Origin: an uncultured Erysipelotrichaceae bacterium
GTDB taxonomy: Bacteria; Bacillota_I; Bacilli_A; RF39; UBA660
Direction of reading: 5' to 3'
DNA: 64,000 nucleotides
NCBI GenBank assembly: GCA_902776735.1
Contig: CACYRE010000001.1
Location: 48,395 to 112,394 of the forward strand
Shown piece after piece: positions 6,444 to 57,562 of the stretch. Positions within the stretch are counted from its first letter, which is position 1. The number at the start of each line of letters is the position of its first letter. Under the pieces are notes generated by a model. The model saw only the letters and a list, made by a program, of their open reading frames with translations. It had not been told where the DNA came from and did not search any database. The translations under genes were made by a program, and so were the position numbers.

Positions 6444-6719
6444 CTATATTTTTTCTAATATCATTCCTACAGCTGTTTTTTCTTCACCTTGTATAGATAA
6501 AATATCAAAATAAGGTCTGATTATAATATCAAACCCTGAAGGTGTAGCTAAACCTCTTGCAGAAATTACAGCTTTTACAGCTTGATTTACTGCAGGTACA
6601 CCAATACATTTTAGTTCTAATTTATCTACGTTTTTTATATTAGCATAAATTGCTGACGCTAATTTTTTAATATCAGTATCTTTTCCAACTCTAAATTCTG
6701 GTATGTTCTTTGCTTCCAT
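6444..6719 (-). CDS. spoVS: SpoVS-like protein (stage V sporulation protein S homologue)
   Basis: 91 aa; strongly resembles SpoVS core (CIGVPAVNQAVKAVISARGLATPSGFDIIIRPYFDILSIQGEEKTAVGMILE vs SpoVS GAGALNQAVKAVAIARGFVAPSGVDLICIPAF..GEERTAIKLIVE, recalled from memory); RBS AGGAGGTAAAT-ATG. Confidence 0.75.
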   Translation of the reverse strand: MEAKNIPEFRVGKDTDIKKLASAIYANIKNVDKLELKCIGVPAVNQAVKAVISARGLATPSGFDIIIRPYFDILSIQGEEKTAVGMILEKI

Positions 6720-7873: not shown

Positions 7874-10048
7874 CTACCTCTTTATATTATTTCTTTTACA
7901 ATAAACAATTATTGTACTTTTATCTCTATTTAATTTTTTAGCTATTTTTCCATAAGATATGTTTTTAATATTATTTTTTATAAATTCTTTTTCTTCTTCT
8001 GTTAAATAATTAATATTCTTTTTATATTCTATATAATTTAATCTACAATAGTTTCTTATTGTAGCTTCTGCTCTATTTAATTTTTCTATCATTTCTTTAA
8101 GTGTCATATTTTTAGCATTTTTCTTTATAAAATCTCTTTCTTCTTCTGATAAAAGTGAATAACCCCTTTTTCTTGTATGTTTATATTCTATATTATTTTT
8201 ATTATAATATTCTCTAATTGTAGCTTCAGCTCTATTTAATTTATCCATCATTTCTTTAATAGTCATATTTTTAGCATTTTCTTCTATAAAATCTTTTTCT
8301 TCTTCTGATAAATAATGAGAGATTTTTATATATTCTATATTATTTCTATCACAATAAGCATTTATTACAGACATACTTCTATTTAGTTTTTTTGCTAATT
8401 CTTTAGATGTCATAGTTATAGCATTTTTCTTTATAAAGTCTTTTTCTTCTTCTGTAAAAGGATTATAATCTTTTTTATGTTCTATATTATTTCTATAATA
8501 ATAACCACTTATTGTTGGTGTACATCTATTTAGCTTTTTTGCTATTTCTTTAATAGTCATATTTTTAGCATTTTCTTCTATAAATTTTTTTTCCTTTTCA
8601 GATAAAAAATAAAATTCTTTTTTATATTCTATATTATTTCTATCACAATAATCTCTAATTGTAGCTTCTGGTCTATTTAATTTTATTGTTAATTCTTTAA
8701 TAATCATATTTTTAGCATTTTCTTCTATAAATTTTTTTTCTTCCTCTGATAAAAGATAAATTTCTTTTTTATATTTTATATTATTTCTTTTATAATATTG
8801 TCTTATAGTATAAGGTTTTTTATTTAGTTTTTTTGCTATTTCTTTAGTTGTCATAGTCATAGCATTTTCTTCTATAAATTTTTTTTCTTCTTCTGATAAA
8901 TAAATAATTGTATGAGTGTTTTCTTTAATTAAATTTATTAAATTTTCTTGTTTTGTATAGATTTTTAATTTTTCTTTCTTCTTTCCTATTTTAATATCAG
9001 AAACTTTTATATTTCTTTTTTTAGCAAAATTTTCCCAAATAGATATATAACCACTATCTAAATTATATGCATTATTAACTAAATCAAATACTATAGCATC
9101 TTCTCTATGTTCTGAAATTATTCTACCTAATTGTTGTTGATATATAATATTACTTCTAGTTTTTCTTAAGAATACTGCTACATCTATATTAGATAAATGT
9201 ATACCTTCAATAAACATATTTACTGAATATAATATATTTATTCCTTTTTTAGAATTATAAAAATCATTTAATATTTGATTATTAAGTTTATTAGATTTTT
9301 TAGAATGTATATCAAAATTATTAACATCTCTATCTATCCATAATTTTATAAAATTTTTTGCTTGTTCTATATCATTAATTCTAGATACAAATACTATAAT
9401 ATGAAGAGGTTTACTATAATCTATAAATTCTTCAAATATATTTTTTACTTTAGTATTTATATCATAATTAGATAATTTCTTTTGCAAAGCTTTATTTTTA
9501 TAATATCTATAATCTATTTCATAAATAGAAGAAACATATTTTATTTGAGGTAATATTCCTCGTTCTATAGATTCAGCTAAATATAAAGGTTCTATTTCTT
9601 CATTATTAAATATTAATTCTATAGGATTCTTACCATCCATTCTTTCAGGAGTAGCACTAAATCCTATCATTTTACCTTTATAATCTTCTAAGTCTTTCTT
9701 TAATATATTACCCCATTTTTCTGTAACTGACCTATGCATTTCGTCTAAAAATATATAGTCATAATCTAATAAAGACTTATGATTAAAATTTTGTTTTAGT
9801 AAATTACTATATATTATAAAATCTGTATTATTATAATTTCCAAATTCTTTAATATATTCAACAATATTATCTCTAGGTTCTATAATAAGTTTCTTTCCTA
9901 GAAGCTCATCACATAATTCCATTATAATATGAGATTTACCAAAACCTACTGGTCTTACTACACCAAATTTATCACAAGTCTTTAATTTTTCTAATATTAA
10001 ATTTTTAGTCTTTATTCTTTCTATAGATAGTAAACTTTTATCAAACAT
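7874..10048 (-). CDS. SF2 helicase-like ATPase fused to eight tandem helix-turn-helix repeats
   Basis: Walker A VGFGKSH, DExH-like FLDEMHR, SATP motif, QQLGRIIS; C-terminal 8 x ~46-aa repeats LSEEEKxFIEENAKNMTIKEIAKKLNRxxxTIRxYxxRNNIEYKK (HTH-like); promoter TTTACA-N17-TATAAT upstream. Confidence 0.7.
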   Translation of the reverse strand: MFDKSLLSIERIKTKNLILEKLKTCDKFGVVRPVGFGKSHIIMELCDELLGKKLIIEPRDNIVEYIKEFGNYNNTDFIIYSNLLKQNFNHKSLLDYDYIFLDEMHRSVTEKWGNILKKDLEDYKGKMIGFSATPERMDGKNPIELIFNNEEIEPLYLAESIERGILPQIKYVSSIYEIDYRYYKNKALQKKLSNYDINTKVKNIFEEFIDYSKPLHIIVFVSRINDIEQAKNFIKLWIDRDVNNFDIHSKKSNKLNNQILNDFYNSKKGINILYSVNMFIEGIHLSNIDVAVFLRKTRSNIIYQQQLGRIISEHREDAIVFDLVNNAYNLDSGYISIWENFAKKRNIKVSDIKIGKKKEKLKIYTKQENLINLIKENTHTIIYLSEEEKKFIEENAMTMTTKEIAKKLNKKPYTIRQYYKRNNIKYKKEIYLLSEEEKKFIEENAKNMIIKELTIKLNRPEATIRDYCDRNNIEYKKEFYFLSEKEKKFIEENAKNMTIKEIAKKLNRCTPTISGYYYRNNIEHKKDYNPFTEEEKDFIKKNAITMTSKELAKKLNRSMSVINAYCDRNNIEYIKISHYLSEEEKDFIEENAKNMTIKEMMDKLNRAEATIREYYNKNNIEYKHTRKRGYSLLSEEERDFIKKNAKNMTLKEMIEKLNRAEATIRNYCRLNYIEYKKNINYLTEEEKEFIKNNIKNISYGKIAKKLNRDKSTIIVYCKRNNIKR
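7900..9000 (-). repeat. eight imperfect tandem ~138-bp repeats encoding the HTH repeat array
   Basis: Protein-level 46-aa repeats within CDS 7874..10048. Confidence 0.6.
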
Positions 10049-13597: not shown

Positions 13598-15634
13598 TTA
13601 TAATACTTGAATAGCTCCAGTAGATGCAAAATAAAATCCACTAAAATCTAAGTCTCTACCTAAAGCTCCATAATCAAAATAATCAGATAAATCATTTCCA
13701 TCTGCAATATCTATTTCTAATTGTTCTTCTACTACAGAGTCTAACCATTCTTCTACTAGGTCATAAAATTCATCACTACCTTCATCTATATCTGGGTTAT
13801 CATCTCTTACAGATTCTTCAGCTGCTTCTCTCCAGCTTTCTCTATAAGCTTTTTCATCAATATAATTTTCTTTATTAGCTACTCCTTCAAAACCTCCAAT
13901 CATATCTACCCAGGCTTCACCTAATTCTTCTTCAGTTTCTACTCCTGGAAAGAATATATAATCCCCAGATTCTAATATATCCATACAAGTATCAAAATCA
14001 TCATTTTGGTCTTCCATTATAGCAGTAAAAGCAGCTCTTTCATCTTCTGATAATTCTTCAATCTTTTCAAGCTGTTCAATAACTACCCAAGGATTTGAGT
14101 ATTCATCTATAGTAAAAGGAATATCTCCTTCAGTATCATTTATAAATGGTTCTTCATCTTTATGTGCTTCTAAAAATTCTTTAGCTTGTTCTAATTTCAT
14201 CCAACCACCATTTATTTGTTCTACATCTGCTCCATTTTCATTATAATTTCCCCAAGTATTCATAAATAATTCAATATTTAATGGATTATATTCTTCTGTT
14301 AATAAACCTTTTTCTATACTATCTTTTCTTACATTTTCTAAACTAGATTCTTCTAATTGACTTAATTTATCCATTAGAAAATCTCTTTTAGACTCTAAAC
14401 CAGAAATATTTTTATTTGGGTCAGAATTTGCTATACTATCTTGTACTTTTTCTAATTCTTTCTTTATAGTTTCAGCATAATCTTTTCTTGTTTTATTTGA
14501 TACTGATTCAGACAACATATCATAAACTTCTTGTGTTTCATATCTTATTATATGTTTTCCATCTTTATCAGTTCCATTATACATAGGACCTAAATAACCT
14601 TTAAATTGTAATTGATTATCTAATTCTTCTCTTGGAACTACACCACCATTATTTCTATATTTTGAATTATCAGGAGATAATTTATCTTCTTTTATTGGTA
14701 ATTTTTCTGCTTCTTCTCTTGTATAAGTTCCAGCATAATCACCACCAACTAATTGATAGACATAATTATTATAATCAGCCTCTTCATTTAAAGCTGATTC
14801 ATCATATTCCTCAAAATCAAAGTTTTGATTTACTTCTTCTAAAAATTCATCTAAATAATTATCATTTACAGAATCTAAATCTGTATTTCTTAATGCAAAC
14901 ATTATTACTTGAACCATTGATTGCCAGGTTTTTGACCTATTAAAATCTTCTATATTATTAGGCATTGATGAAATAAAACCAGAACTAGAAGAATAATTTG
15001 ATTTTAAAAAGTTTTCAAATTCACTATTTGATAAAGCTTCTTTTCTTAAATTTTCATATTCATCTTGATTTACTTCTAAATTAAATTCTAGCTCGTCTCC
15101 TGAATAATTATATTGACTTGGATGATAAACTTTATTTGCTATAATTTTAGCACTTGGAAGAACTTCTTGTATTGTTTTTTCTATATATTTTGGAGCAATA
15201 TCTTCTATTATTTTATCTAATTCTTCTAATGAAGCACTATCTGGTAATCTGTCACTTAAAGAATACATATCAACATTTATTATTGGAAGTACCCCAGTAT
15301 TTAAATCTATATCTAAATTAGCTCCAGATTCATTTAAATTAGATTCATCTAATGATATACTTCCATAACCTTTATATTCTTCATATCCTTGGTCTTTTAA
15401 TTCTCTTGCTTTTTGTCTTAATGCTTTGCTTGTTAATTTTTTATGTTTATTTAAAGGCATTGTTTGACTATTAACAAATTGAAATTGTTTAGTTTCATTA
15501 TTTATAATTAAACCTAAAATACTAAAGTTAAATTGATTTTTAGACACATAGGTTTCGTCACCAGATAACATTTTTTTGTCATCTTCTTTTAAATTTGCTT
15601 GAATATTTTCAAATAACTTTTTTGTTCCTGACAT
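13598..15634 (-). CDS. large leader-bearing protein (MSGTKKLFENIQANLKED)
   Basis: 678 aa; N-terminus fits family-1 leader consensus; RBS AGGAGGATTAAAATG. Confidence 0.65.
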   Translation of the reverse strand: MSGTKKLFENIQANLKEDDKKMLSGDETYVSKNQFNFSILGLIINNETKQFQFVNSQTMPLNKHKKLTSKALRQKARELKDQGYEEYKGYGSISLDESNLNESGANLDIDLNTGVLPIINVDMYSLSDRLPDSASLEELDKIIEDIAPKYIEKTIQEVLPSAKIIANKVYHPSQYNYSGDELEFNLEVNQDEYENLRKEALSNSEFENFLKSNYSSSSGFISSMPNNIEDFNRSKTWQSMVQVIMFALRNTDLDSVNDNYLDEFLEEVNQNFDFEEYDESALNEEADYNNYVYQLVGGDYAGTYTREEAEKLPIKEDKLSPDNSKYRNNGGVVPREELDNQLQFKGYLGPMYNGTDKDGKHIIRYETQEVYDMLSESVSNKTRKDYAETIKKELEKVQDSIANSDPNKNISGLESKRDFLMDKLSQLEESSLENVRKDSIEKGLLTEEYNPLNIELFMNTWGNYNENGADVEQINGGWMKLEQAKEFLEAHKDEEPFINDTEGDIPFTIDEYSNPWVVIEQLEKIEELSEDERAAFTAIMEDQNDDFDTCMDILESGDYIFFPGVETEEELGEAWVDMIGGFEGVANKENYIDEKAYRESWREAAEESVRDDNPDIDEGSDEFYDLVEEWLDSVVEEQLEIDIADGNDLSDYFDYGALGRDLDFSGFYFASTGAIQVL

Positions 15635-47913: not shown

Positions 47914-49269
47914 CTAGTATTTCTTAACTAAATTACAATAATTAAGATTTACCCATCCGCTAGGTGTTTTAGCCCAATCACCTCTAATTTCTTTTGTATC
48001 AAATCTAGTACCTTTTTTATATGTTTTTATAACTCTATAATTTGTACTAGGACCACGTCTTACATTTAAATTTGTAGTTGTAATATATTTTCCTAAAACA
48101 TATTTAGGAGTCTCAGGTTGTGTTTTAGGACTTGTTTGTTCATTAGATGAGTTATTATTTGTCTGTGGAATTTCAGTGCTTAATGATGAAGAATGAACCC
48201 AAAATTGTCTATCTAACATTTGAACTAAAACTCTTTGTCCTTCATCCCATACTACAGTAGCTAATCCATACAATCTATTATCTGAAGTTACTACTGATTT
48301 ATTAATCCAGAACTGATTTAATCCATTATCAACTATTACTTCTGTACCACCATCATAAGCTATTGCAATTGATTCATTAACTAAAACTCTTTGTCCTTGT
48401 TTATATTTTTGTTCTATTGAATTATTTGGTTTATATGCAAACCATCCTTTTGAATTAGCATATTTCTTAAAATTTGAAATACTACAATAAACTGTATTTC
48501 CAGATACTGTTACTTTTCCCCTTCTACTTGAAGAATTAAATTTTCCAGCATATAAATATGGGTCATATATTTTTAGTATATCACCTGAAATACCAGATAT
48601 TACTATATAATGACCTCCTGTTGTAAATAAACCTTCTGAACAACTAACTATTTCATAAGAACCATTTTTTATCTCTTGTAATGCGTCATCAACATTATAT
48701 AATTGTTTATAATCTATATCATAAGCACTTGCTGTCCATTTAAATGCACTAAAATAAGTTCCATTATCAGCACTTCTAAATCCATTATTAACAAATAATT
48801 TAGCCATTGTTTCAGGTGTTACACTGCTATCTTTTAAACCTGCTACTATCATAGCTGCTGAAGTTGGTCCACATCCACTAGAACCTATAGTTTGATTTAG
48901 ATTTCCAACTGAAGTATAAAGTATATTTTTCCATCTGTTATCTATTTGTGAATAATAGACTGGTTTATTAATTACCTGTGAATTTCCTATAGAAATTTCT
49001 TCTGTTTCTTTAGTTGATTTAGATATAATATCCGGATTTGACTCCTCAAATCCTTCAACTTCTAGATTATTTTCATCATATTCTGAACCACTTGTTAAGG
49101 TGTCTTCTTCAATATATTCAATATTATTTTCTATAATATCTTCTTCAATAACATTTTCTATTTTATTTTTCTCAATATTATTATGCACTGTATTTATAAT
49201 TAATCCTGTTATAATAATTATAATAAGACATAGGAATATTTTAAATAAATTATTCTTTAACTTTTTCAA
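47914..49269 (-). CDS. endolysin: N-terminal TM/signal-anchor, cysteine peptidase (C39-like/NlpC-P60 superfamily) domain, C-terminal SH3b repeats
   Basis: Hydrophobic N-term LFKIFLCLIIIIITGLIINTV; SSGCGPTSAAMIV (Cys) and GGHYIVISG (His); repeated GQRVLV... and RRGPSTNYRVIKTYKKGTRFD SH3_3-like segments. Confidence 0.65.
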   Translation of the reverse strand: MKKLKNNLFKIFLCLIIIIITGLIINTVHNNIEKNKIENVIEEDIIENNIEYIEEDTLTSGSEYDENNLEVEGFEESNPDIISKSTKETEEISIGNSQVINKPVYYSQIDNRWKNILYTSVGNLNQTIGSSGCGPTSAAMIVAGLKDSSVTPETMAKLFVNNGFRSADNGTYFSAFKWTASAYDIDYKQLYNVDDALQEIKNGSYEIVSCSEGLFTTGGHYIVISGISGDILKIYDPYLYAGKFNSSSRRGKVTVSGNTVYCSISNFKKYANSKGWFAYKPNNSIEQKYKQGQRVLVNESIAIAYDGGTEVIVDNGLNQFWINKSVVTSDNRLYGLATVVWDEGQRVLVQMLDRQFWVHSSSLSTEIPQTNNNSSNEQTSPKTQPETPKYVLGKYITTTNLNVRRGPSTNYRVIKTYKKGTRFDTKEIRGDWAKTPSGWVNLNYCNLVKKY

Positions 49270-50554: not shown

Positions 50555-50779
50555 TTATGCATTCTCTCCATTTATATTAATGAGTATATTAGCACATGTA
50601 TTTATATCATCTTGTGTCATAGCTCCTGAATCTGGTACTCTCTTTATTAAATCTGGTATTTCTCTAAATTTAACATTAGTATCTAATTTAGCTCTTAATA
50701 ATTGTGTTTTTAATTCTTTTTTAACTTTTTTTACATTTTCTAGTTTTTCTGGTATATACATTTTATAATTCCTCCCCAT
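50555..50779 (-). CDS. hypothetical protein
   Basis: small ORF. Confidence 0.4.
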   Translation of the reverse strand: MGRNYKMYIPEKLENVKKVKKELKTQLLRAKLDTNVKFREIPDLIKRVPDSGAMTQDDINTCANILININGENA

Positions 50780-51014
50780 TTACGTTTTGAGATTTACGCA
50801 CCAATTTATCTAATTCTGACTGAGAGACTATTAAAGTATCGATTATTACTCCTAATTGTTCTGGATATTCACTAAATGGTGAATCTTCTTCTAAAGTTCC
50901 TCCAATTTCATTAATAGAATCTTTTATTAAATCTTTAGTTTCTTCAATGTATTCAAGTTTGGTTTCTATTTCATTATTTTCTTCCATAAACATACCTCCT
51001 ATTATGCAGACCAT
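50763..51014 (-). CDS. hypothetical acidic protein
   Basis: small ORF. Confidence 0.4.
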   Translation of the reverse strand: MVCIIGGMFMEENNEIETKLEYIEETKDLIKDSINEIGGTLEEDSPFSEYPEQLGVIIDTLIVSQSELDKLVRKSQNVNGEEL

Positions 51015-52606
51015 CCAGCATCTACAAAATCTTGATAATTAGATAGACTTTGACATTTTGTTCTTTGAGTAGAATTTAATCCAGTATAACCTAATGTTTT
51101 TGGAGAAGTATTTACTGCAGTGATACAAGAAGCCATTATATTATTTAAACTTTCATTTGACAGACTAGTACATCCTGTAAAAGTACTAGACAATCCAGAA
51201 CCAGCGATACTACTTAAATTGAATACAGGTAAAGTTTCTAATTTAGTACATCCATTAAACATATTAGACATATTAGTAACTTTATTTGTATCTATCTGAG
51301 GTATACTTTCTAAGTTAGTACAATTCTGAAACATATTAGTCATATTAGTAACACTAGAAGTATTCAATAAAGGTATGGTAGTTAAACTATCACACTTATA
51401 AAACATATAAGACATATTAGTAACTTTATTTGTATCTATCTGAGGTATACTTTCTAAGTTAGTACAATTAGTAAACATACTGTTCATACTAGTAACATTA
51501 CTAGTATTTAGTAAAGGAATAGTAGTTAAACTATTACATCCAGAAAACATACTTTGTGTACTAGTAACACTACCAGTATCTATCTGAGGTATACTTCCTA
51601 AGTTAGTACATCCAGAAAATATATTGGCCATATCAGTAACTTTATTAGTATTTAATAAAGGAATAGTAATTAATATACGACAATTTCTAAACATTCCTTG
51701 CATATTAGTAACATTACTTGTATCTAATAAAGGTATACTTTCTAATTTATAACAGTATTCAAACATATTTTGCATAGTAATAACTTTACCAGTATTTAAT
51801 AATGGTATAGTAGTTAAATTAACACAACTATCAAACATTTGTTGCATATTAGTAACATTGCTTGTATTAAATAATGTTACACTTTCCAATCTATTACAGT
51901 TTTGAAACATACTTTGTGTATTAATAACACTAGAAGTATCAGGCATTCCTACTACTTCTTTTAATCTCTTAGCATCCCAAAAGAAAGCTTTTAAACTATT
52001 AGTTGTAATTGGAACATCAGTTAAATCTACTTTTTCAATAAATGAAAGAATTCTATTTTCAGATGGTGAGCTCTGCGCTCCAGTTTCAGTAGATATAGAA
52101 TTTGTAAGACCAACATTATAATCAGGAATTTCAACAGTTCCTTCAATATTTAATATTTTATAACCTTTAACTATTTTAGAAGCGGTTAATCCTATACTTG
52201 AAGCTAATGTACTCGGAGAAGTGCCTAGCTGGATATGAGCAGCCCAAGAAGTATTCCTTAATAGCTTTCCTTGTGCAGGAAGATTATAATAACAAGAAAA
52301 ATATACTGACCCTGTAATACTTGAATAATCTTTTATTTGTGAAGCAGTTTGATAAATTGAATCTATTATTTCTATATTTCCTTCTATTAATTTCCCATCT
52401 TTATAAATCGTATATCCTTGTGCTACTTCATCTGCTGTAGCTGTTGCGTCATTACCTATACTATCTATTTTATCTACATAGCTTCTAAACGTATCTTCAT
52501 CAGAAACTTCTTGACCTTTATCAATTAAAGTTTCTTTAATTTGCCTTTTTGTTTCTGCTAAATAATTTAAATTATCTTCTAAATCTTGAGTTGTGTAATC
52601 AGACAT
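51002..52606 (-). CDS. receptor-binding/tail-fibre protein with ~11 DUF285/BspA-type 22-24-aa repeats
   Basis: Repeats ...LNTSNVTNMQxMFxxCxNLxxIP...; C-term SLSNESLNNIMASC...SNYQDFVDAGWSA shared with 56285 and 24044 proteins. Confidence 0.65.
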   Translation of the reverse strand: MSDYTTQDLEDNLNYLAETKRQIKETLIDKGQEVSDEDTFRSYVDKIDSIGNDATATADEVAQGYTIYKDGKLIEGNIEIIDSIYQTASQIKDYSSITGSVYFSCYYNLPAQGKLLRNTSWAAHIQLGTSPSTLASSIGLTASKIVKGYKILNIEGTVEIPDYNVGLTNSISTETGAQSSPSENRILSFIEKVDLTDVPITTNSLKAFFWDAKRLKEVVGMPDTSSVINTQSMFQNCNRLESVTLFNTSNVTNMQQMFDSCVNLTTIPLLNTGKVITMQNMFEYCYKLESIPLLDTSNVTNMQGMFRNCRILITIPLLNTNKVTDMANIFSGCTNLGSIPQIDTGSVTSTQSMFSGCNSLTTIPLLNTSNVTSMNSMFTNCTNLESIPQIDTNKVTNMSYMFYKCDSLTTIPLLNTSSVTNMTNMFQNCTNLESIPQIDTNKVTNMSNMFNGCTKLETLPVFNLSSIAGSGLSSTFTGCTSLSNESLNNIMASCITAVNTSPKTLGYTGLNSTQRTKCQSLSNYQDFVDAGWSA

Positions 52607-52739
52607 AATTTACCTCCTTAACTAATCTCTATTATAATATATAAATAATAGACATTTAGATTATTTAATAACAAAAATTAGGACCTATATTAATATAGGT
52701 CCTTTAGAAGTAAGTGAGGCTTATTTTCAAAGTTTTATT

Positions 52740-53147
52740 TTACATTTTAAAATATTTTTCAACTTTATATTTTGGAGCATCACTGTCATTTATGAAAAGT
52801 TTAGACATCTCTAAGCAAAATTCATTTATGTCTAGCCTTTTAGATTCTGGATACGTTTTACAGTCATTATAAAACATATTCATACATAAATAATATTCTA
52901 TAATGTCATCATAATTTATTCCTGATTTAGTTAAAGTATCTTCTACACTCTCTATAGTATATACTTCACCAAAAGGTTTCATGTGCTTAACGATTTCAAT
53001 AGCTTCATCCTCATCAATATAATAAAGCATTTCACAGATTAAATCTTCATACTTATTTACTAATGGACTTTTTTCACTATCTAAATCTTCTAGCATACTA
53101 TTTATGACACCTTCTAGACTAGATTTACTTAATTTTGATAAATCCAT
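52740..53147 (-). CDS. hypothetical acidic protein
   Basis: ORF. Confidence 0.45.
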   Translation of the reverse strand: MDLSKLSKSSLEGVINSMLEDLDSEKSPLVNKYEDLICEMLYYIDEDEAIEIVKHMKPFGEVYTIESVEDTLTKSGINYDDIIEYYLCMNMFYNDCKTYPESKRLDINEFCLEMSKLFINDSDAPKYKVEKYFKM

Positions 53148-53160
53148 ATTTAGCTCCTTT

Positions 53161-53559
53161 CTATTGGTCTACACCAATTGCAGCTGAGTATATATTAATA
53201 TCAGCATTTGGTACAACTGTTAGTATAACACTTTGGAATGGAACACCTGGATTTGCTCTAATAATTGTATTAAAAGAGCTATCAACATAAGTTGTGTTAG
53301 ATGCAACTGTTGCATTAATTAAAGCATCTGGAATTGCTACTCCATTTGCATATAATTGAATTAATACTGGTTCTGTCACAGCTTCTGGTGTGGTAAATGA
53401 GATGTCTAAATTTACCTCATAGAAACCTGGAGAACGGACTACAATATTTCCTGAACCTGATTGATGTCCAATACTGTTACCAATATCAAACTTATCAACA
53501 TTAAAAGGTATAGCAGTATTAGCAGTAACAGTTATATCCTTAGAATAAGTTCTTAGCAT
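53161..53559 (-). CDS. BclA C-terminal-domain-like (C1q/TNF-like beta-sandwich) protein
   Basis: IPFNVDKFDIGNS...GFYEVNLDISFTT...LIQLYANGVAIPDA parallels BclA-CTD VPFNTVGSQFGT...GFYKITVIANTA...LTIQVNGVPVPGT (from memory). Confidence 0.5.
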   Translation of the reverse strand: MLRTYSKDITVTANTAIPFNVDKFDIGNSIGHQSGSGNIVVRSPGFYEVNLDISFTTPEAVTEPVLIQLYANGVAIPDALINATVASNTTYVDSSFNTIIRANPGVPFQSVILTVVPNADINIYSAAIGVDQ

Positions 53560-53572
53560 AATATTCTCCTTT

Positions 53573-54319
53573 CTATACTACACCAGATACTCCATATCCA
53601 TAACCATATCCATAATAAGGACTGTATAAGCTTGTATATGGGCTTGATACAATATAAGATGGAGTAGGATATGGTCTCAAAGTATTAGTTAAGTTTGCTG
53701 TTTGGTCAATTTGAGAAATTTGGAATCTTGCTGTTTGAAGTTCTCTATCTCTATCTGCTAGCTTATCACGTAAGTTGTCAATTTGATTTTGACATAAAGC
53801 ATCTAAGATTTTTTGAGTATTAGCAACTCCTTCTTCTCTTAAAGTGCAGCAACAACTAGCTAATTGCATTTGATTTGTTAATGCATTATTTGATGCTTGC
53901 ATTTGTGCTTCTAGAGCATTATTACTTAACTGCATTTGAGTTCTTAGAGCATCTGTTGACATTTGTCCTTGTAACTGATTTGTTTGTAAAGCGTTATTAA
54001 ATCTGTTTTCTAAAACCTCTTTAGTTGTTCCAAATGAAGTTTCTAGTACATCACGATTTACTTGATTTACAGCATCATGATTTTGAACTGATAAAAACTT
54101 ATCGTTTTGGTTACTAAATTGATTTGCTACAAATTCTGTAGAAGCATTATCATTGTTGTTTCCAAAGAAGCCTCCATTTCCGCCAAACATCCCAGCAATT
54201 ATAAAGAATATTATAATCCACCAGAAATAACCCCCTCCCATATTATCGTAATCATGGTCGTGATTATTAGTTAAAGCTAGTACATCTGCGGCTGTTAAGC
54301 CTGAATTTGCATTGTCCAT
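53573..54319 (-). CDS. membrane-anchored coiled-coil protein with Gly-rich N-term and YGYGYGYG C-terminus
   Basis: GGGYFWWIIIFFIIAGMFGG TM; Q/N-rich heptads; CCC triplet. Confidence 0.45.
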   Translation of the reverse strand: MDNANSGLTAADVLALTNNHDHDYDNMGGGYFWWIIIFFIIAGMFGGNGGFFGNNNDNASTEFVANQFSNQNDKFLSVQNHDAVNQVNRDVLETSFGTTKEVLENRFNNALQTNQLQGQMSTDALRTQMQLSNNALEAQMQASNNALTNQMQLASCCCTLREEGVANTQKILDALCQNQIDNLRDKLADRDRELQTARFQISQIDQTANLTNTLRPYPTPSYIVSSPYTSLYSPYYGYGYGYGVSGVV

Positions 54320-54365
54320 AGATGGACCTCCTTTCCAATAAACTATTTATGTAATGTTGCAACTA

Positions 54366-54581
54366 TTACCTAGAATTTCTATAAGCTCTTTCTAATTGGT
54401 CTCTCGTAATACCATTTCTATTACATATATCTGCAATTTTTTGAGCTCTTTCTTCATCGTTATTACTATTCGCTAGATTTGAAAAGATTCCCTTTAGATT
54501 TTGGTTTGGTAACATGTTCATCGCCATTGTTAACGGGTTTTGGCTCATCGATAATTGGCTGATTAGATTTTGTATATTCAT
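54366..54581 (-). CDS. small protein; overlaps 54466..54930 by 116 nt in another frame
   Basis: Protein-like C-terminus IADICNRNGITRDQLERAYRNSR; may be frameshift partner of upstream ORF. Confidence 0.35.
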   Translation of the reverse strand: MNIQNLISQLSMSQNPLTMAMNMLPNQNLKGIFSNLANSNNDEERAQKIADICNRNGITRDQLERAYRNSR

Positions 54582-54930
54582 TGTTCATTCTAACCTCCAT
54601 TTCTCTTAATTTTCTTTCTAAATTTTCAATTTTTAAATCTTTTTCATCTTTAGGTAATACTATAAAATATTCTTTTAATTCTCCATCTGTTTCTTTTATT
54701 GATAATTTTCCATTCTTTAAATCAATAAAAGCAGTTTTGTTTTGTACATAAATGTCTGATGGATTCTCTGTTGTGAATTTTGCCTCGAATATAGGCTGAT
54801 TATTAGTAGTTGGAGTAGTTATAATGTTATTAATCGGTTGAGGCATATTTTGATAGTTTGCTTTAAGTCTTTGTAAATCCTCAATTTGTCTATCAATTCT
54901 ACTCAATTCCATTGGATTATACATAATCAT
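54466..54930 (-). CDS. hypothetical protein
   Basis: ORF; low-complexity C-terminal tail overlapping next ORF. Confidence 0.45.
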   Translation of the reverse strand: MIMYNPMELSRIDRQIEDLQRLKANYQNMPQPINNIITTPTTNNQPIFEAKFTTENPSDIYVQNKTAFIDLKNGKLSIKETDGELKEYFIVLPKDEKDLKIENLERKLREMEVRMNNEYTKSNQPIIDEPKPVNNGDEHVTKPKSKGNLFKSSE

Positions 54931-55058
54931 TCCTCCTATTTAATTTTTATAGTTAGATTATATTTAAATAGAAATTAAAATGTCATTCTGAATACATTAA
55001 AAAATTGCATAAAAATAGAGAGTATATTTTCATATACTCTCATCATTTAAATATTCAA

Positions 55059-55631
55059 TTAAAATTTACAGTATATTCTGACTGCAAATGCAACCTTATC
55101 TAATTTTTCAGCAACTCTAGGACCATCTAATTCTAATAAATCAGATATTTCTCCAAAAGTCTTATGGTCTTTAAACCTATATTTATAGATAAGATATTCT
55201 ATGGTATTACTTTCTTTTAATTTCTTCTCAAATTCTATAAGTCTATCATCAAATTCATTGTATTTAATAAAATCTATAATGTCTTGATATTTGCTAGGCT
55301 CACCATGATTTTTCCATAAATATAAACAAGTAATATCAGACCTTCCAGTCATTATAAGTGCTCCAAATATTGCGAATAAAATTGATATAACTAAATCTAC
55401 TTTCAATATTACAAATATACTTAGCATTATTAATGTACTCCAAATAAGACATCTATACCAAGTTTTAAAATGTAATGCTTTTCCAAACATACCTCTACTA
55501 ATTAAGAAAGTTAACATTAACATTATAATAAACTTATATTCTAATTTTAATGCTAAGCCTACAAGAAAAATAACTATGGTTTCAGCAATATTAAAAATAA
55601 TACCACCAATATTTTTCTTTAACCATTCCAT
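55059..55631 (-). CDS. multi-pass membrane protein (3-4 TM) with cytoplasmic C-terminal domain
   Basis: Hydrophobic helices IIFNIAETIVIFLVGLAL, IIMLMLTFLI, LIWSTLIMLSIFVIL, LVISILFAIFGALIMT. Confidence 0.5.
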   Translation of the reverse strand: MEWLKKNIGGIIFNIAETIVIFLVGLALKLEYKFIIMLMLTFLISRGMFGKALHFKTWYRCLIWSTLIMLSIFVILKVDLVISILFAIFGALIMTGRSDITCLYLWKNHGEPSKYQDIIDFIKYNEFDDRLIEFEKKLKESNTIEYLIYKYRFKDHKTFGEISDLLELDGPRVAEKLDKVAFAVRIYCKF

Positions 55632-55688
55632 AATTATTCTCCTTCTTCAACATCATAAGCCCATAACCAACTTGGCCATCCACCCATA

Positions 55689-56255
55689 TTAAACACCTCC
55701 ATTCATTAAAATAAATACCAAACAACAATTTATAATAAAGAACATAAAGTTGAATGTAACAACATTTAATGCTCTAAAAGTAGCTGATTTCATTTTCTTC
55801 TTTATTTTATCATTTCTATTCCAAAGTTTCTTATATAAATCTTGAATTTTATATAATTTATCTTTAAATACTAATATAAATGAAAACATTAAAATTCTTG
55901 AAACTAATATAAATATATAATATATTCCTATAGTCTTCCAAATCACTAAATAAGACACTATGCTAATTATCATTAATATTATACTAGCTATTCCAAAAGT
56001 AAATATATCTATTATCTGTGATTTCTCTTTATATAATACCTTTAATAATAAATATGTCATTATAAATACAAATAAATGAGCATAAATATTAAATCTCAAA
56101 GTTTCCATTATCAATGTATATTCAATAATCATTAGTATAATAAATTTAAATCTATGTTCTTTTAATCTCTTAGTATAAATCATAAATAGTGCAAAATAAA
56201 TTGCTTCAGGAATTTGTCCTAATAATATTTCTGGTAAATAATTCAATAAATTCAT
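55689..56255 (-). CDS. multi-pass membrane protein (5-6 TM)
   Basis: Almost entirely hydrophobic segments. Confidence 0.5.
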   Translation of the reverse strand: MNLLNYLPEILLGQIPEAIYFALFMIYTKRLKEHRFKFIILMIIEYTLIMETLRFNIYAHLFVFIMTYLLLKVLYKEKSQIIDIFTFGIASIILMIISIVSYLVIWKTIGIYYIFILVSRILMFSFILVFKDKLYKIQDLYKKLWNRNDKIKKKMKSATFRALNVVTFNFMFFIINCCLVFILMNGGV

Positions 56256-56284
56256 TCTATATAATCTCCTTTAAATTTTTTATT

Positions 56285-57037
56285 TTAATATCCAGTAGAC
56301 CATCCAGCATCTACAAAATCTTGATAATTACTTAATTCTTTACATGTAGTTGTTTGTATTAATGTTAATCCTATATATTTTAATGTCTTATTAGACGCTA
56401 TTTTTGTTGCATTTATACACATTGCTAATATATTATTTAAGCTTTCATTTGTTAAATTAGGACAATAAAACATACTTTGCATACTAGTAACATTACTAGT
56501 ATTTAATAATGGTATAGTAGTTAAGTTAGTACAATTTTGAAACATATAAGACATATTAGTAACTTTACCAGTATCTAATAAAGGTATAGTAATTAATGTA
56601 TAACAATTTTTAAACATATTACTCATAATAATAATATTAGAAGTATTTAATGATGGTATATTTTTTAGATTAACACAATCTTCAAACATATTTTGCATAG
56701 TAGTAACATTACTATCAACCTCAATACTTTGTGGTAATTTCATAATCATATAACGTATTCCTGGAGCACTATAAGTAGCCATATCATATCTAGTTTTAAT
56801 AATTGGCTCTATTATTGCATTATATTCGCTACTACCTTCTTCTAATGTACCAGTTACTCCTAAAATAGTAACATCTTTTTTAATATTTTCAGGTATTATA
56901 TATTCATCTTTTTGTCTTTTTATTTCATTAAGATTATCTATTAAAGCATTTATAAATCTCCTTTCTTTATTCTTCCAGATTATCTTCTGGAAGAGATAAA
57001 ATTTCGTCTGTAATATCTTCAGCATTATTAACCTCAT
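56285..57037 (-). CDS. receptor-binding/tail-fibre-like protein with DUF285/BspA-type repeats
   Basis: IIPENIKKDVTILGVTGTL homologous to N-term of 22115/24044; repeats SNIIIMSNMF..C.TL.TIP; C-term NLTNESLNNILAMC...SNYQDFVDAGWSTGY; 5' end overlaps upstream ORF by ~70 nt. Confidence 0.55.
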   Translation of the reverse strand: MRLIMLKILQTKFYLFQKIIWKNKERRFINALIDNLNEIKRQKDEYIIPENIKKDVTILGVTGTLEEGSSEYNAIIEPIIKTRYDMATYSAPGIRYMIMKLPQSIEVDSNVTTMQNMFEDCVNLKNIPSLNTSNIIIMSNMFKNCYTLITIPLLDTGKVTNMSYMFQNCTNLTTIPLLNTSNVTSMQSMFYCPNLTNESLNNILAMCINATKIASNKTLKYIGLTLIQTTTCKELSNYQDFVDAGWSTGY

Positions 57038-57329
57038 CTTCTAAATCTGTTATAATTTGTTGCTGTTCAGATACTGTATTTGATAATTCTTCTATTCTTT
57101 TTCGTAATTCTTCTACTTGTTTTCCTCCTCCAGAAGATTCTTTCATAGAAGTTTTATAATTATCATAAGCTGATTCTGCTTCTTCTAAAGTATCATAAGC
57201 TTCTTTTAAAGTTTCTCCATTTTTTCTATAAAAAATTAATTCTTTATTATTTTCAGGATTTATTACTAAATTTTGGATATAATAAAGATTAATTAATTTA
57301 TTATTTTTATCTTTAATAAATATAGCCAT
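56967..57329 (-). CDS. hypothetical acidic coiled-coil protein
   Basis: ORF. Confidence 0.45.
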   Translation of the reverse strand: MAIFIKDKNNKLINLYYIQNLVINPENNKELIFYRKNGETLKEAYDTLEEAESAYDNYKTSMKESSGGGKQVEELRKRIEELSNTVSEQQQIITDLEDEVNNAEDITDEILSLPEDNLEE

Positions 57330-57343
57330 CAGTATTCTCCTTT

Positions 57344-57562
57344 CTATAATGATAATAAAGTTGCATATATTGATTCTTTTACTGTGTTTGCATCTTCTTC
57401 TGTATTATAAACTCCTTCTTTTATCACTTCTCCGTTAGCTTGAAGATACCCTATTGAAAAAGTATTATCTTCATTATTTACTATAATTACATCTTGCAAA
57501 AGCATTATATTTTGTAATCTACCATTTATTGTTTCTATAAACATAATGAAATCTCCTTTCAC
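57344..57562 (-). CDS. hypothetical protein
   Basis: small ORF. Confidence 0.4.
   Translation of the reverse strand: MKGDFIMFIETINGRLQNIMLLQDVIIVNNEDNTFSIGYLQANGEVIKEGVYNTEEDANTVKESIYATLLSL

Follow-up and report, generated by a model that had tools for sequence, protein, structure and literature searches.

Two adjacent genes in a 64,000-nucleotide (nt) stretch of DNA from an uncultured Erysipelotrichaceae bacterium (contig CACYRE010000001.1, positions 48,395 to 112,394; hereafter the window) may encode the two halves of one membrane-anchored assembly of a stalk and a head, and form the core of a mobile five-gene cassette of phages, probably a late operon. The downstream gene encodes P1, a small protein with the predicted fold of BclA, C1q and TNF head domains, and the gene in front of it encodes P2, which has a putative membrane anchor followed by predicted stalk helices. 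We favour this two-chain reading tentatively, because of the head fold of P1, the anchor and stalk features of P2, the tight coupling of the two genes, and their occurrence in a mobile, self-contained cassette. The fold assignment of P1 is ordinary; it is the near-obligate, portable stalk and head cassette with a membrane-type anchor that deserves follow-up.

Predicted fold of the head protein P1

P1 contains no cysteine, no N-terminal extension and no hydrophobic leader, and no signal sequence was seen on inspection; the protein begins straight at the first beta-strand (MLRTYSK). An original prediction, made from the DNA sequence alone, had given the position of the pair of open reading frames (ORFs), which both exist there on the minus strand, and had likened P1 to the C-terminal domain of BclA (BclA-CTD) and to C1q and TNF proteins on the basis of motifs, all of which were found (IPFNVDKF, PGFYEVNLD and LIQLYANGVAIP). 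The Pfam family BclA_C (PF18573) matched P1 with E = 1.1e-5 and 25.7 bits over 82 of the 128 profile positions, which is below the gathering score of 38, and the P1 homolog on the faecal contig L001 matched nearly the whole profile with 24.9 bits. Close homologs of P1 formed 42 clusters, all of 126-134 amino acids, and many of them carry a precomputed PF18573 match. When a profile of the P1 family was compared with all PDB sequences, the sole match was 9H38, the C-terminal domain of F-BclA (E = 1.5e-5).

The AF2 model of P1, built from the family alignment, had ten strands, a predicted local distance difference test score (pLDDT) of 88.5 and a predicted template modelling score (pTM) of 0.83. 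Foldseek ranked 9H38 first, followed by BclA-CTD (3TWI, 2Z5W, 2R6Q and 1WCK), ExsF/BxpB, C1q heads and TNF ligands, with E values from 2e-8 to 5e-5, template modelling (TM) scores of 0.65-0.78 and identities of 14-18%. The model matched 9H38 with E = 2.4e-8 and 1WCK, the comparison that the original prediction had proposed, with E = 3.2e-7 (TM 0.72-0.78, probability 1.00), so that the predicted likeness to C1q and TNF folds was recovered. These results indicated that P1, as modelled, is a compact jelly-roll beta-sandwich that superposes on the BclA-CTD, C1q and TNF heads, and that by its predicted fold it belongs to the BclA/F-BclA/C1q superfamily, although it scores below the Pfam family threshold. 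By analogy with that superfamily P1 would be a homotrimer.

The best matches among predicted viral structures (BFVD) were stand-alone proteins of 130-145 amino acids from uncultured gut phages, with TM scores of 0.83-0.91; some viral structure matches carry the depositor label 'BclA protein', and the BFVD matches include collagen-stalked phage proteins. A profile search of 1.84 billion representatives gave a head family of 590 clusters at 50% identity, almost all of 129-150 amino acids and with the whole domain covered. Among the longer relatives, P0206 has the classical BclA layout of a Cys-rich N-terminus, collagen GXY repeats and a head, and P0215 and P0266 are extended at the N-terminus by Cys/Pro-rich sequence in which CGCG and CCC motifs occur.

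The nearest solved structures, F-BclA, BclA and ExsF, are spore-surface proteins, and the original prediction had offered mimicry of a host spore-surface protein as one explanation. The BclA-like head would then sit on an anchor deposited on the host exosporium or spore, or would mimic these, within a wider manipulation of sporulation. Spore-surface proteins likewise have no signal peptides and are rich in Cys or Tyr/Gly, and Clostridium perfringens is the cultured host of some P2-bearing phages. The SpoVS/AbrB theme that had been pointed out for the window was also confirmed, as SpoVS-like and AbrB/SpoVT-like proteins are encoded there, but it is not needed to explain the pair of P1 and P2. 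The identity of P1 to BclA-type spore heads is 14-16%, however, no better than to C1q. The exosporium leader that docks on ExsF/BxpB gave no NCBIfam match (TIGR03720-type) in P1 or P2, neither protein has such an N-terminal motif, and there is no collagen region. P1 thus departs from the BclA type in collagen stalk, leader and genome, its gene lying in a phage late-gene block rather than in a spore former, and the promoter-like site of the cassette within that block is of sigma-70 type. The P2 family is virtually absent from bacterial genomes, its module with the DUF7841 gene is also present in crAss-like phages and in one that infects Bacteroides uniformis, which does not sporulate, and pairs of P2 and head genes reach 55% G+C. 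The paper that describes F-ENA appendages makes no mention of phages (PMC12357932). We give very little credence to spore-surface mimicry.

Anchor and stalk features of P2

P2 matched phrog_16490, a family of unknown function, over its full length (hidden Markov model match, E = 4e-13, with residues 6-246 aligned to positions 5-276 of the 286 in the profile). The P2 family has at least 349 homolog clusters and more than 512 IMG/VR loci. A P2 profile gave nothing below E = 0.3 among the PDB sequences, so that no solved structure, fusion proteins and spanins included, was found to be related.

The acidic N-terminal tail of P2, about 25 residues long, contains a conserved GLSAxDVLAL motif and leads into an uncharged stretch in which a very hydrophobic core, YFWWIIIFFIIAGMF, lies between Gly/aromatic runs. 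The hydrophobic segment was found in 110 of 110 distinct family members, in which the uncharged stretch averages 30 residues and follows an acidic tail of about 23. Helices are predicted at residues 59-115, 124-164 and 168-214 (about 155 helical residues); only secondary structure was taken from the AF2 monomer of P2. Gln and Asn make up 26% of the helical region. The original prediction had described long Q/N-rich heptads, and the composition held, but the spacing is not that of simple heptads: the strongest hydrophobic periodicity in residues 116-164 is 11 residues, with an autocorrelation of 0.40 at lag 11 and 0.35 at lag 22. Close relatives of P2 carry one to four copies of the repeat, and this variation in copy number suggests the behaviour of length-variable stalks.

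At least one CCC (or CC) is present throughout the P2 family, and half of the aligned members have a second CCC copy. P2 has a further cysteine, C176, and a conserved EG marks the break between the second and third helices. The tail ends in ...SPYYGYGYGYGVSGVV (YGYGYG), and across the family the C-terminal tails are Tyr/Gly-rich or Cys/Gly-rich by clade. The YG repeats are encoded by a perfect tandem hexanucleotide (TCCATA x4 on the plus strand), and the length of the tail could change by slippage. The Gly/Phe-rich hydrophobic stretch, the CCC triplet and the YG tail had all been described correctly in advance. A split collagen-like fibre had also been put forward; a split between a stalk/anchor gene and a head gene is a reasonable architecture, but the collagen is not, as GXY repeats are absent from the P2 sequence and P2 is predicted to be alpha-helical. 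Among the head relatives, collagen stalks were seen only in some fused ones such as P0206.

In three large-phage loci (L121, L125 and L132) an insert of about 1 kb, which carries a GIY-YIG-type ORF, splits the P2 gene precisely at its CCC codons. In L121 (IMGVR_UViG_3300045988_158127), the locus in which an intron core was searched for and inspected, the ORF encodes 290 amino acids, and the insert also contains the core of a group I intron, with a score above the Rfam gathering threshold (RF00028, 61.2 bits against 50, E = 9.5e-15). The insert of L121 looks like a homing intron inside the stalk gene. Elements of this type usually occupy conserved sites of functionally important phage genes, so the insertion at the CCC site bears on the importance of P2.

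The succession in P2 of a Gly-flanked hydrophobic segment, a long helix, a second helix that runs to CCC, an EG break and a third helix with C176 recalls i-spanins and the subunits of class I viral fusion proteins. By this analogy P2 would be a membrane-remodelling protein, and P1 its cap or regulator. A P2-like gene adjoins holin and LysB-like genes in the crAss-like phage cr125_1, where it bears the label 'spike protein/glycoprotein', and lysis genes are adjacent to the cassette in L001 and L011. Nevertheless, P2 has no sequence or profile similarity to a solved fusion protein or spanin and no second membrane anchor, its partners have no lipobox or signal peptide, the Gram-positive hosts have no outer membrane to fuse, and the likeness is one of feature order only. 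A membrane-remodelling role of this kind is improbable. Equally improbable, in our estimate, is a broader version in which P2 and P1 would be a two-chain analogue of a membrane-anchored TNF/C1q-type ligand or of a class I fusion machine, portable across phages of Firmicutes and Bacteroidota, and in which a fusion-peptide-like Gly-rich segment, a Cys-marked chain reversal and a C1q-like trimer cap would act on the host membrane at lysis or entry.

Coupling of the P1 and P2 genes

The genes for P2 and P1 are separated by 13 nt, and each is preceded by a GGAGG-type ribosome-binding site. Homologs of four consecutive window genes are present in the same order on L001 (5 kb). Among the IMG/VR loci obtained with the P2 profile (n = 80), the P1 profile recognised the next downstream gene in about 70. 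After an iterative search, a P1-family gene was next downstream of P2 in all complete IMG/VR loci but L016, which has an alternative partner; the remaining exceptions among the 80 were loci cut by a contig end. Over all fetched loci, 129 of the 143 with P2 had a P1-family gene within 1 kb downstream. A reverse search from two other head subfamilies, which are 24-31% identical to P1, found P2 directly upstream in 36 of 37 loci. The pairing of P1 with its upstream gene, which the original prediction had taken as given, is thus conserved. These results indicated that the adjacency of P1 and P2 is near-obligate in both directions and as tight as is usual for subunits of one complex, and we infer that the two proteins are in physical contact.

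The two genes could also be co-inherited neighbours whose products do not touch; P2 might act in a membrane, for example, and P1 might bind glycans as a soluble protein set free by lysis. No P2-P1 fusion ORF was present in the 143 loci, head and anchor/stalk always being separate ORFs, the tail of P2 is not partner-specific, and an optional small gene, s71, stands between P2 and P1 in many loci. Set against this are the near-obligate adjacency, which holds both ways, down to about 25-30% identity and in many genome backgrounds, and the Cys/Pro-rich N-terminal extensions of the head relatives P0215 and P0266, whose composition is like that of the P2 tail. We consider independence of the two proteins highly improbable.

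Organization of the five-gene cassette

The cassette of the window has the order U154, U71, P2, P1 and DUF7841 (Table 1). In U154 an N-terminus rich in Q, N, P and Y is followed by two coiled coils with a small beta region between them; the protein had no Pfam or NCBIfam match, and its homologs, which form three subfamilies (phrog_21718), lie two genes upstream of P2 in most loci. U71 was conserved directly upstream of P2 (75 ORFs in an iterative search). U71 begins, in the +1 frame, 116 nt before U154 ends, as it does in L001 and L011. A conserved programmed frameshift at this site was considered and rejected, since subfamilies differ in the length of the overlap (4 to 119 nt), which is a subfamily trait; over 74 loci it was 4 nt in 35, 98 nt in 15 and 116 nt in 12. 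The DUF7841 gene starts 13 nt after P1, and many loci have a member of this family behind the partner gene.

A promoter-like site, the best-scoring in 5 kb, lies just upstream of U154; it is a consensus match only, and such sites are no more numerous in the region than in shuffled sequences. Two terminator-like hairpins, the only such sites in 52400-57400, together with the promoter-like site frame exactly five genes, which suggests from the sequence signals that the five form one operon.

When the neighbours of P2 and P1 were clustered across loci, the recurrent order was a small gene resembling sigma region 4 or helix-turn-helix (HTH) proteins, U154, U71, P2, the optional s71 (about 70 amino acids, helical) and P1, followed by DUF7841 or by the gene families f5 and f9 or f46 and f49. 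The small sigma/HTH-like gene is present in most versions of the cassette. In one head relative of 228 amino acids, P0220, a sigma/HTH-like N-terminal half is fused to a P1-type head; this may be an artefact of gene calling or assembly, and it again places a small regulator beside the head gene.

P1 matched phrog_20016 and P2 matched phrog_16490 and phrog_9288; these families and DUF7841 are all annotated as 'unknown function'. No description of the pairing, of the cassette, of DUF7841, of a linkage between the PHROG identifiers or of a phage system that joins a stand-alone C1q head to a transmembrane coiled-coil protein was found in the literature searched, a searchable collection that is itself incomplete.

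Distribution, mobility and alternative partners

The cassette was found at varied genome positions in phages of 26-130 kb. In a large group of phages of 26-46 kb it lies between portal/MuF-like and scaffold/capsid-like genes; in the L011 group it lies between tail genes and a holin-like gene with Amidase_2; in CPD1-type phages of C. perfringens it follows the lysis genes, among early genes; and in the window and its relatives it lies beside genes for DUF285/leucine-rich-repeat (LRR) proteins. In the Bacteroides phage C3_41T2LP it is located among early or recombination genes. P2-bearing loci and contigs with P2 and a head span 25-55% G+C. A survey of about 186,000 species-representative genomes found the P2 family at 14 loci, all on phage-sized contigs of metagenome-assembled genomes and none in an isolate. 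The P2 family is essentially phage-only, and the cassette is self-contained and horizontally mobile between unrelated phages.

P2 has a different partner in CPD1, PMQ04, 17DYC, Dulem virus 36, bajarodcaudo virus 2 and L016, namely a Cys-rich beta protein of about 120-137 amino acids with an MSCNC/MSCQYC-type N-terminus and a GNNLxADQIRSR motif. The partners of CPD1 and Dulem virus 36 had no Pfam match. Two assignments of this protein were rejected: a divergent BclA_C domain, because the hhalign probability against P1 was 0.3%, and a subunit of Ena or F-ENA fibres (DUF3992, DUF4183; Ena1B, Ena2A), because a five-member profile had no PDB match better than E = 0.26. Its N-terminus recalls the Cys connectors of Ena spore fibres, and no homology was detected. 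A third partner type follows the P2-like gene in cr125_1 and C3_41T2LP, the two neighbourhoods examined. The P2-like genes of crAss-like phages and of C3_41T2LP, a cultured phage of Bacteroides uniformis, encode the hydrophobic segment, CCC, the Pro motif and a CGCGC tail, and C3_41T2LP also has the DUF7841 gene (E = 5e-16, 59.3 bits). Depositors have labelled P2-like genes 'spike protein/glycoprotein' and 'outer capsid protein/viral fiber'; these labels are unverified. In cr125_1 (L010) the P2-like gene lies directly after annotated holin, LysB-like and sigma-like genes, and both it and the partner gene hold in-frame stops under the standard code, which is consistent with the stop-codon recoding that has been reported in some crAss-like phages.

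The exchange of partners on a conserved P2, between BclA_C-like heads and two other beta-rich types, and the variation in stalk repeats resemble host-range cassettes. The proteins could accordingly belong to an accessory fibre or receptor-binding unit of the virion, with a P2 trimer as the shaft, its N-terminal region on the particle (possibly via U154) and a P1 trimer as the distal knob; DUF7841 and U71 would be fibre-assembly chaperones, and the hydrophobic segment would be hidden inside the particle or would engage the membrane of the host when particle and cell meet. C1q/TNF-like knobs are established on phage fibre tips, and the fold of P1 matches the knob of the phi812 central spike, the short tail fibre of cyanophage A-1(L) and the tail complex of cyanophage A4, besides the collagen-stalked BFVD proteins. 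A small gene right after the head gene occupies the position of fibre chaperone genes, and the window cassette stands between baseplate-like genes, DUF285/LRR genes and an endolysin-like gene. However, the N-terminus of P2 and its hydrophobic helix are conserved across unrelated virion modules and genome sizes, which makes a specific dock on the virion unlikely. The cassettes of the CPD1-type phages and C3_41T2LP lie among early or recombination genes, most versions have their own small sigma/HTH-like gene, and the window version has its own promoter- and terminator-like signals. On balance a virion fibre is rather unlikely, though it deserves more weight than the other alternatives.

Proposed assembly on the host membrane

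The reading that we favour places the assembly on the membrane of the infected cell. The N-terminal hydrophobic helix of P2 would insert in the host cytoplasmic membrane, and the rest of P2 would form a long alpha-helical stalk, probably trimeric, in which periods of 7 and of 11 residues occur and the number of repeats varies. The Cys clusters (CCC and C176) may staple the stalk, through a bound metal or through disulfides after release, and a trimeric P1 of the C1q/TNF/BclA type would cap it. Since the partner proteins have no export signal and the N-tail of P2 is short and acidic, stalk and head would be assembled on the cytoplasmic face of the membrane and exposed only at lysis. U71, DUF7841 and, in other phages, s71 may be assembly factors. 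The assembly would have an accessory function directed at the envelope, either engagement of membrane or wall linked to lysis or the exclusion of other phages, and would not be a fixed part of the virion.

The location at the infected-cell membrane is itself proposed with reserve. It was chosen because the hydrophobic segment is conserved across phages with unrelated virion modules, for which a lipid bilayer is the only socket in common, because most versions come with a regulator-like gene as part of the cassette, and because some versions abut lysis genes. These neighbours are an M15 peptidase gene and a transmembrane/coiled-coil gene in L001, a holin-like gene and Amidase_2 in L011, and an annotated holin and a LysB-like gene in cr125_1. 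We infer the trimeric state, the insertion and topology of P2 in the membrane, and the function from the features described above.

Several observations weigh against this proposal. To our knowledge, a cytoplasmic C1q-like head has no precedent outside spore-coat assembly. The cassette lies among genes of tail-fibre type (DUF285/LRR, DUF4376) in the window and at several other loci, which fits a virion fibre equally. The charges that flank the hydrophobic segment of P2 favour neither topology, with a net charge of about -2.5 in the N-tail, about -1.2 in the C-terminal flank and about one basic residue on each side, and the AF2 monomer of P2 had a pLDDT of 45. No cassette protein had a match in NCBIfam or PADLOC, that is, to a known defence or exclusion family. 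The Cys content of the P2 tail correlated only moderately with that of the partner (rho 0.51, among related sequences and uncorrected for phylogeny), and this is weak evidence of contact. Lastly, the C-termini of P2 from Dulem virus 39 and bajarodcaudo virus 2 are almost identical and their partner types differ, so the conserved P2 tail is not a partner-specific docking site.

Genomic surroundings of the cassette

The window has a G+C content of about 25%, and P1, P2 and all other genes of interest lie on the minus strand. Replication genes (helicase, family A polymerase and DnaB-like) occupy 26-37 kb, and virion and baseplate-like genes occupy 57-64 kb. Because these genes and an endolysin-like gene are present, the window was taken to be part of a large tailed phage. 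Identical P1 and P2 proteins occur on metagenomic contigs of 119-127 kb. A megablast search with the region found nothing similar among 50,697 phage records, and blastn searches with two of the large-phage loci gave no informative match.

Directly upstream of the cassette are genes for two multi-pass membrane proteins, which occupy the same place in related loci (families f31 and f38). The one nearer to the cassette has a weak AgrB-like match (E = 9e-4), and its C-terminal segment resembles the small sigma/HTH-like gene that heads the cassette elsewhere. DUF285/BspA-type LRR proteins are encoded on either side of the cassette; they have the N-terminal motif NLNY/EIK..K..I in common with each other and with at least one small neighbouring ORF, and these look like an exchangeable fibre or adhesin family whose members share an adaptor end. 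One of the genes located among the virion-like ones encodes a cysteine peptidase of the papain family (C1). Farther away, the window encodes a helicase of 724 amino acids with at least five fused HTH-type domains (HTH_17, HTH_11, HTH_38 and others), a protein of 678 amino acids with a C-terminal ArdA antirestriction domain, a protein similar to Bacillus subtilis SpoVS (E = 3.8e-16), and a protein in which an AbrB/SpoVT-type domain at the N-terminus is joined to a Cys-rich C-terminus. The host of the window phage is plausibly an endospore former.

Table 1 Features of the cassette and related loci. Coordinates refer to the window unless a locus is named.
Feature	Coordinates	Strand	Basis or remark
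P1, stand-alone BclA-CTD/C1q/TNF-type beta-sandwich head (predicted), 132 amino acids	53161..53559	-	Pfam, profile, AF2, Foldseek
P2, putative anchor and helical stalk, 248 amino acids	53573..54319	-	phrog_16490, secondary structure prediction
P2 residues 26-56, uncharged Gly/Phe-rich stretch of 31 residues, NMGGGYFWWIIIFFIIAGMFGGNGGFFGNNN, putative membrane anchor	54152..54244	-	hydrophobicity
P2 residues 116-164, 11-residue repeats QMQxSNNALxx, up to and including CCC	53828..53974	-	autocorrelation
P2 CCC motif, residues 156-158	53846..53854	-	nearly invariant in the P2 family
P2 C-terminal region, conserved LRPYPTPSYIVSSPY Pro-rich motif and Tyr/Gly tail	53576..53683	-	family alignment
TCCATA x4, encoding the YG repeats of P2	53591-53614	+	perfect tandem repeat
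U154, first cassette gene, 154 amino acids	54466..54930	-	ORF call, neighbour clustering
U71, second cassette gene, 71 amino acids, helical, Met/Gln/Asn-rich	54366..54581	-	iterative search
U154/U71 overlap	54466-54581	-	116 nt
DUF7841 protein, last cassette gene, 135 amino acids, helical	52740..53147	-	Pfam PF25223, 38.1 bits against a cutoff of 25.2
Promoter-like site ATGACA-18-TATAAT, 11/12 matches	54957..54986	-	just upstream of U154
Terminator-like hairpin closing the preceding gene	55018..55041	-	hairpin scan; upstream cassette boundary
Terminator-like hairpin, 10 bp stem and T-run	52680..52703	-	directly after DUF7841; downstream cassette boundary
Alternative Cys-rich partner	L002 6394-6771; L003 6381-6764; L016 5734-6147; L108 3950-4309; L111 3946-4350		
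Split P2 homolog	L121 1213-2956		
GIY-YIG-type ORF	L121 1640-2512		
Group I intron core	L121 2327-2601		Rfam RF00028
P2-like gene of cr125_1	L010 3350-4249		in-frame stops
Partner gene of cr125_1	L010 4264-4692		in-frame stops
Multi-pass membrane protein, weakly AgrB-like	55059-55631	-	
Multi-pass membrane protein	55689-56255	-	
DUF285/BspA-type LRR protein	51002-52606	-	
DUF285/BspA-type LRR protein	56285-57037	-	
Small ORF with the same N-terminal motif	50763-51014	-	
Papain-family (C1) cysteine peptidase	58419-59213	-	
Endolysin-like protein (peptidase C39-like and SH3)	47914-49269	-	probably the endolysin
Helicase with fused HTH-type domains	7874-10048	-	
Protein with ArdA domain	13598-15634	-	
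SpoVS-like protein	6444-6719	-	
AbrB/SpoVT-type protein	29479-29901	-	

Significance

Spore filaments and phage fibres are known to end in heads of the C1q/TNF/BclA type; in the present cassette such a head is a separate small protein, almost always coupled to a dedicated gene for anchor and stalk. The cassette is spread over different phage lineages and host phyla in gut and rumen viromes, and all of its genes carry the annotation 'unknown function'. Its function would give a recurrent block of viral dark matter a role, which may be to act on membranes, to serve as an exchangeable host-range fibre or to form an accessory complex directed at the envelope. If the fibre explanation were true, the cassette would be a natural split scaffold of stalk and head with exchangeable heads, and if the membrane-active explanation were true, it would be a new class of phage module independent of an outer membrane. 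Cultured systems with the module are the CPD1-type phages of C. perfringens and the Bacteroides uniformis phage C3_41T2LP.

Comparison with known systems

Several phage and spore systems resemble the pair of P1 and P2 in part. In the lactococcal siphophage TP901-1, a coiled-coil trimer encoded by one gene (BppU) holds beta-sandwich trimers encoded by the next (BppL); unlike P2, BppU lacks both Cys clusters and a membrane-type hydrophobic segment, and its gene has a set place in the baseplate block. The i-spanin Rz and the class I fusion subunits have, like P2, an N-terminal hydrophobic segment, a long helical coiled coil and important cysteines. In contrast to the Rz/Rz1 spanin, the P2 module has no partner with a lipobox or signal peptide that could be an o-spanin and no second anchor, and it occurs in phages of the Gram-positive C. 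perfringens, whereas such spanins belong to phages of diderm hosts. The knobs of phage fibres, such as those of the phi812 central spike (9EUL), the cyanophage A-1(L) short tail fibre (8KE9) and the collagen-stalked BFVD proteins, place the fold class of P1 at a fibre end. There a long fibre protein carries the knob as its C-terminal domain, whereas the members of the P1 family are almost all stand-alone proteins of 129-150 amino acids with the P2 gene in front.

The TNF ligands and C1q proteins (EDA-A1, C1q and C1QL) have the trimeric head of the superfamily to which P1 is assigned. TNF ligands are type II proteins in which a short N-tail is followed by a transmembrane helix, a stalk and the head, and this order equals that of P2 followed by P1. 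A TNF ligand is a single chain with an exported head, whereas P1 is separate and has no signal, and the likeness is limited to the fold. The BclA and F-BclA C-terminal domains are, like the model of P1, jelly-roll beta-sandwiches (TM 0.72-0.78). The structure 9H38 shows the C-terminal head of F-BclA, a collagen-like protein that forms the tip fibrillum on F-ENA spore appendages in Bacillus thuringiensis. In both BclA and F-BclA the head domain is trimeric and sits distally on a fibrous stalk, the opposite end of which is anchored (PMC12357932); P2 and P1 would reproduce this layout in two chains. P1 differs from these proteins in being a separate chain of 132 amino acids without a GXY stalk; its candidate stalk, P2, is predicted to be helical, is encoded by its own gene and has a membrane-type anchor, and the locus is a phage locus and not a sporulation locus. 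In every characterised relative the head domain with the fold of P1 is trimeric and tips a fibrous stalk that has an anchor.

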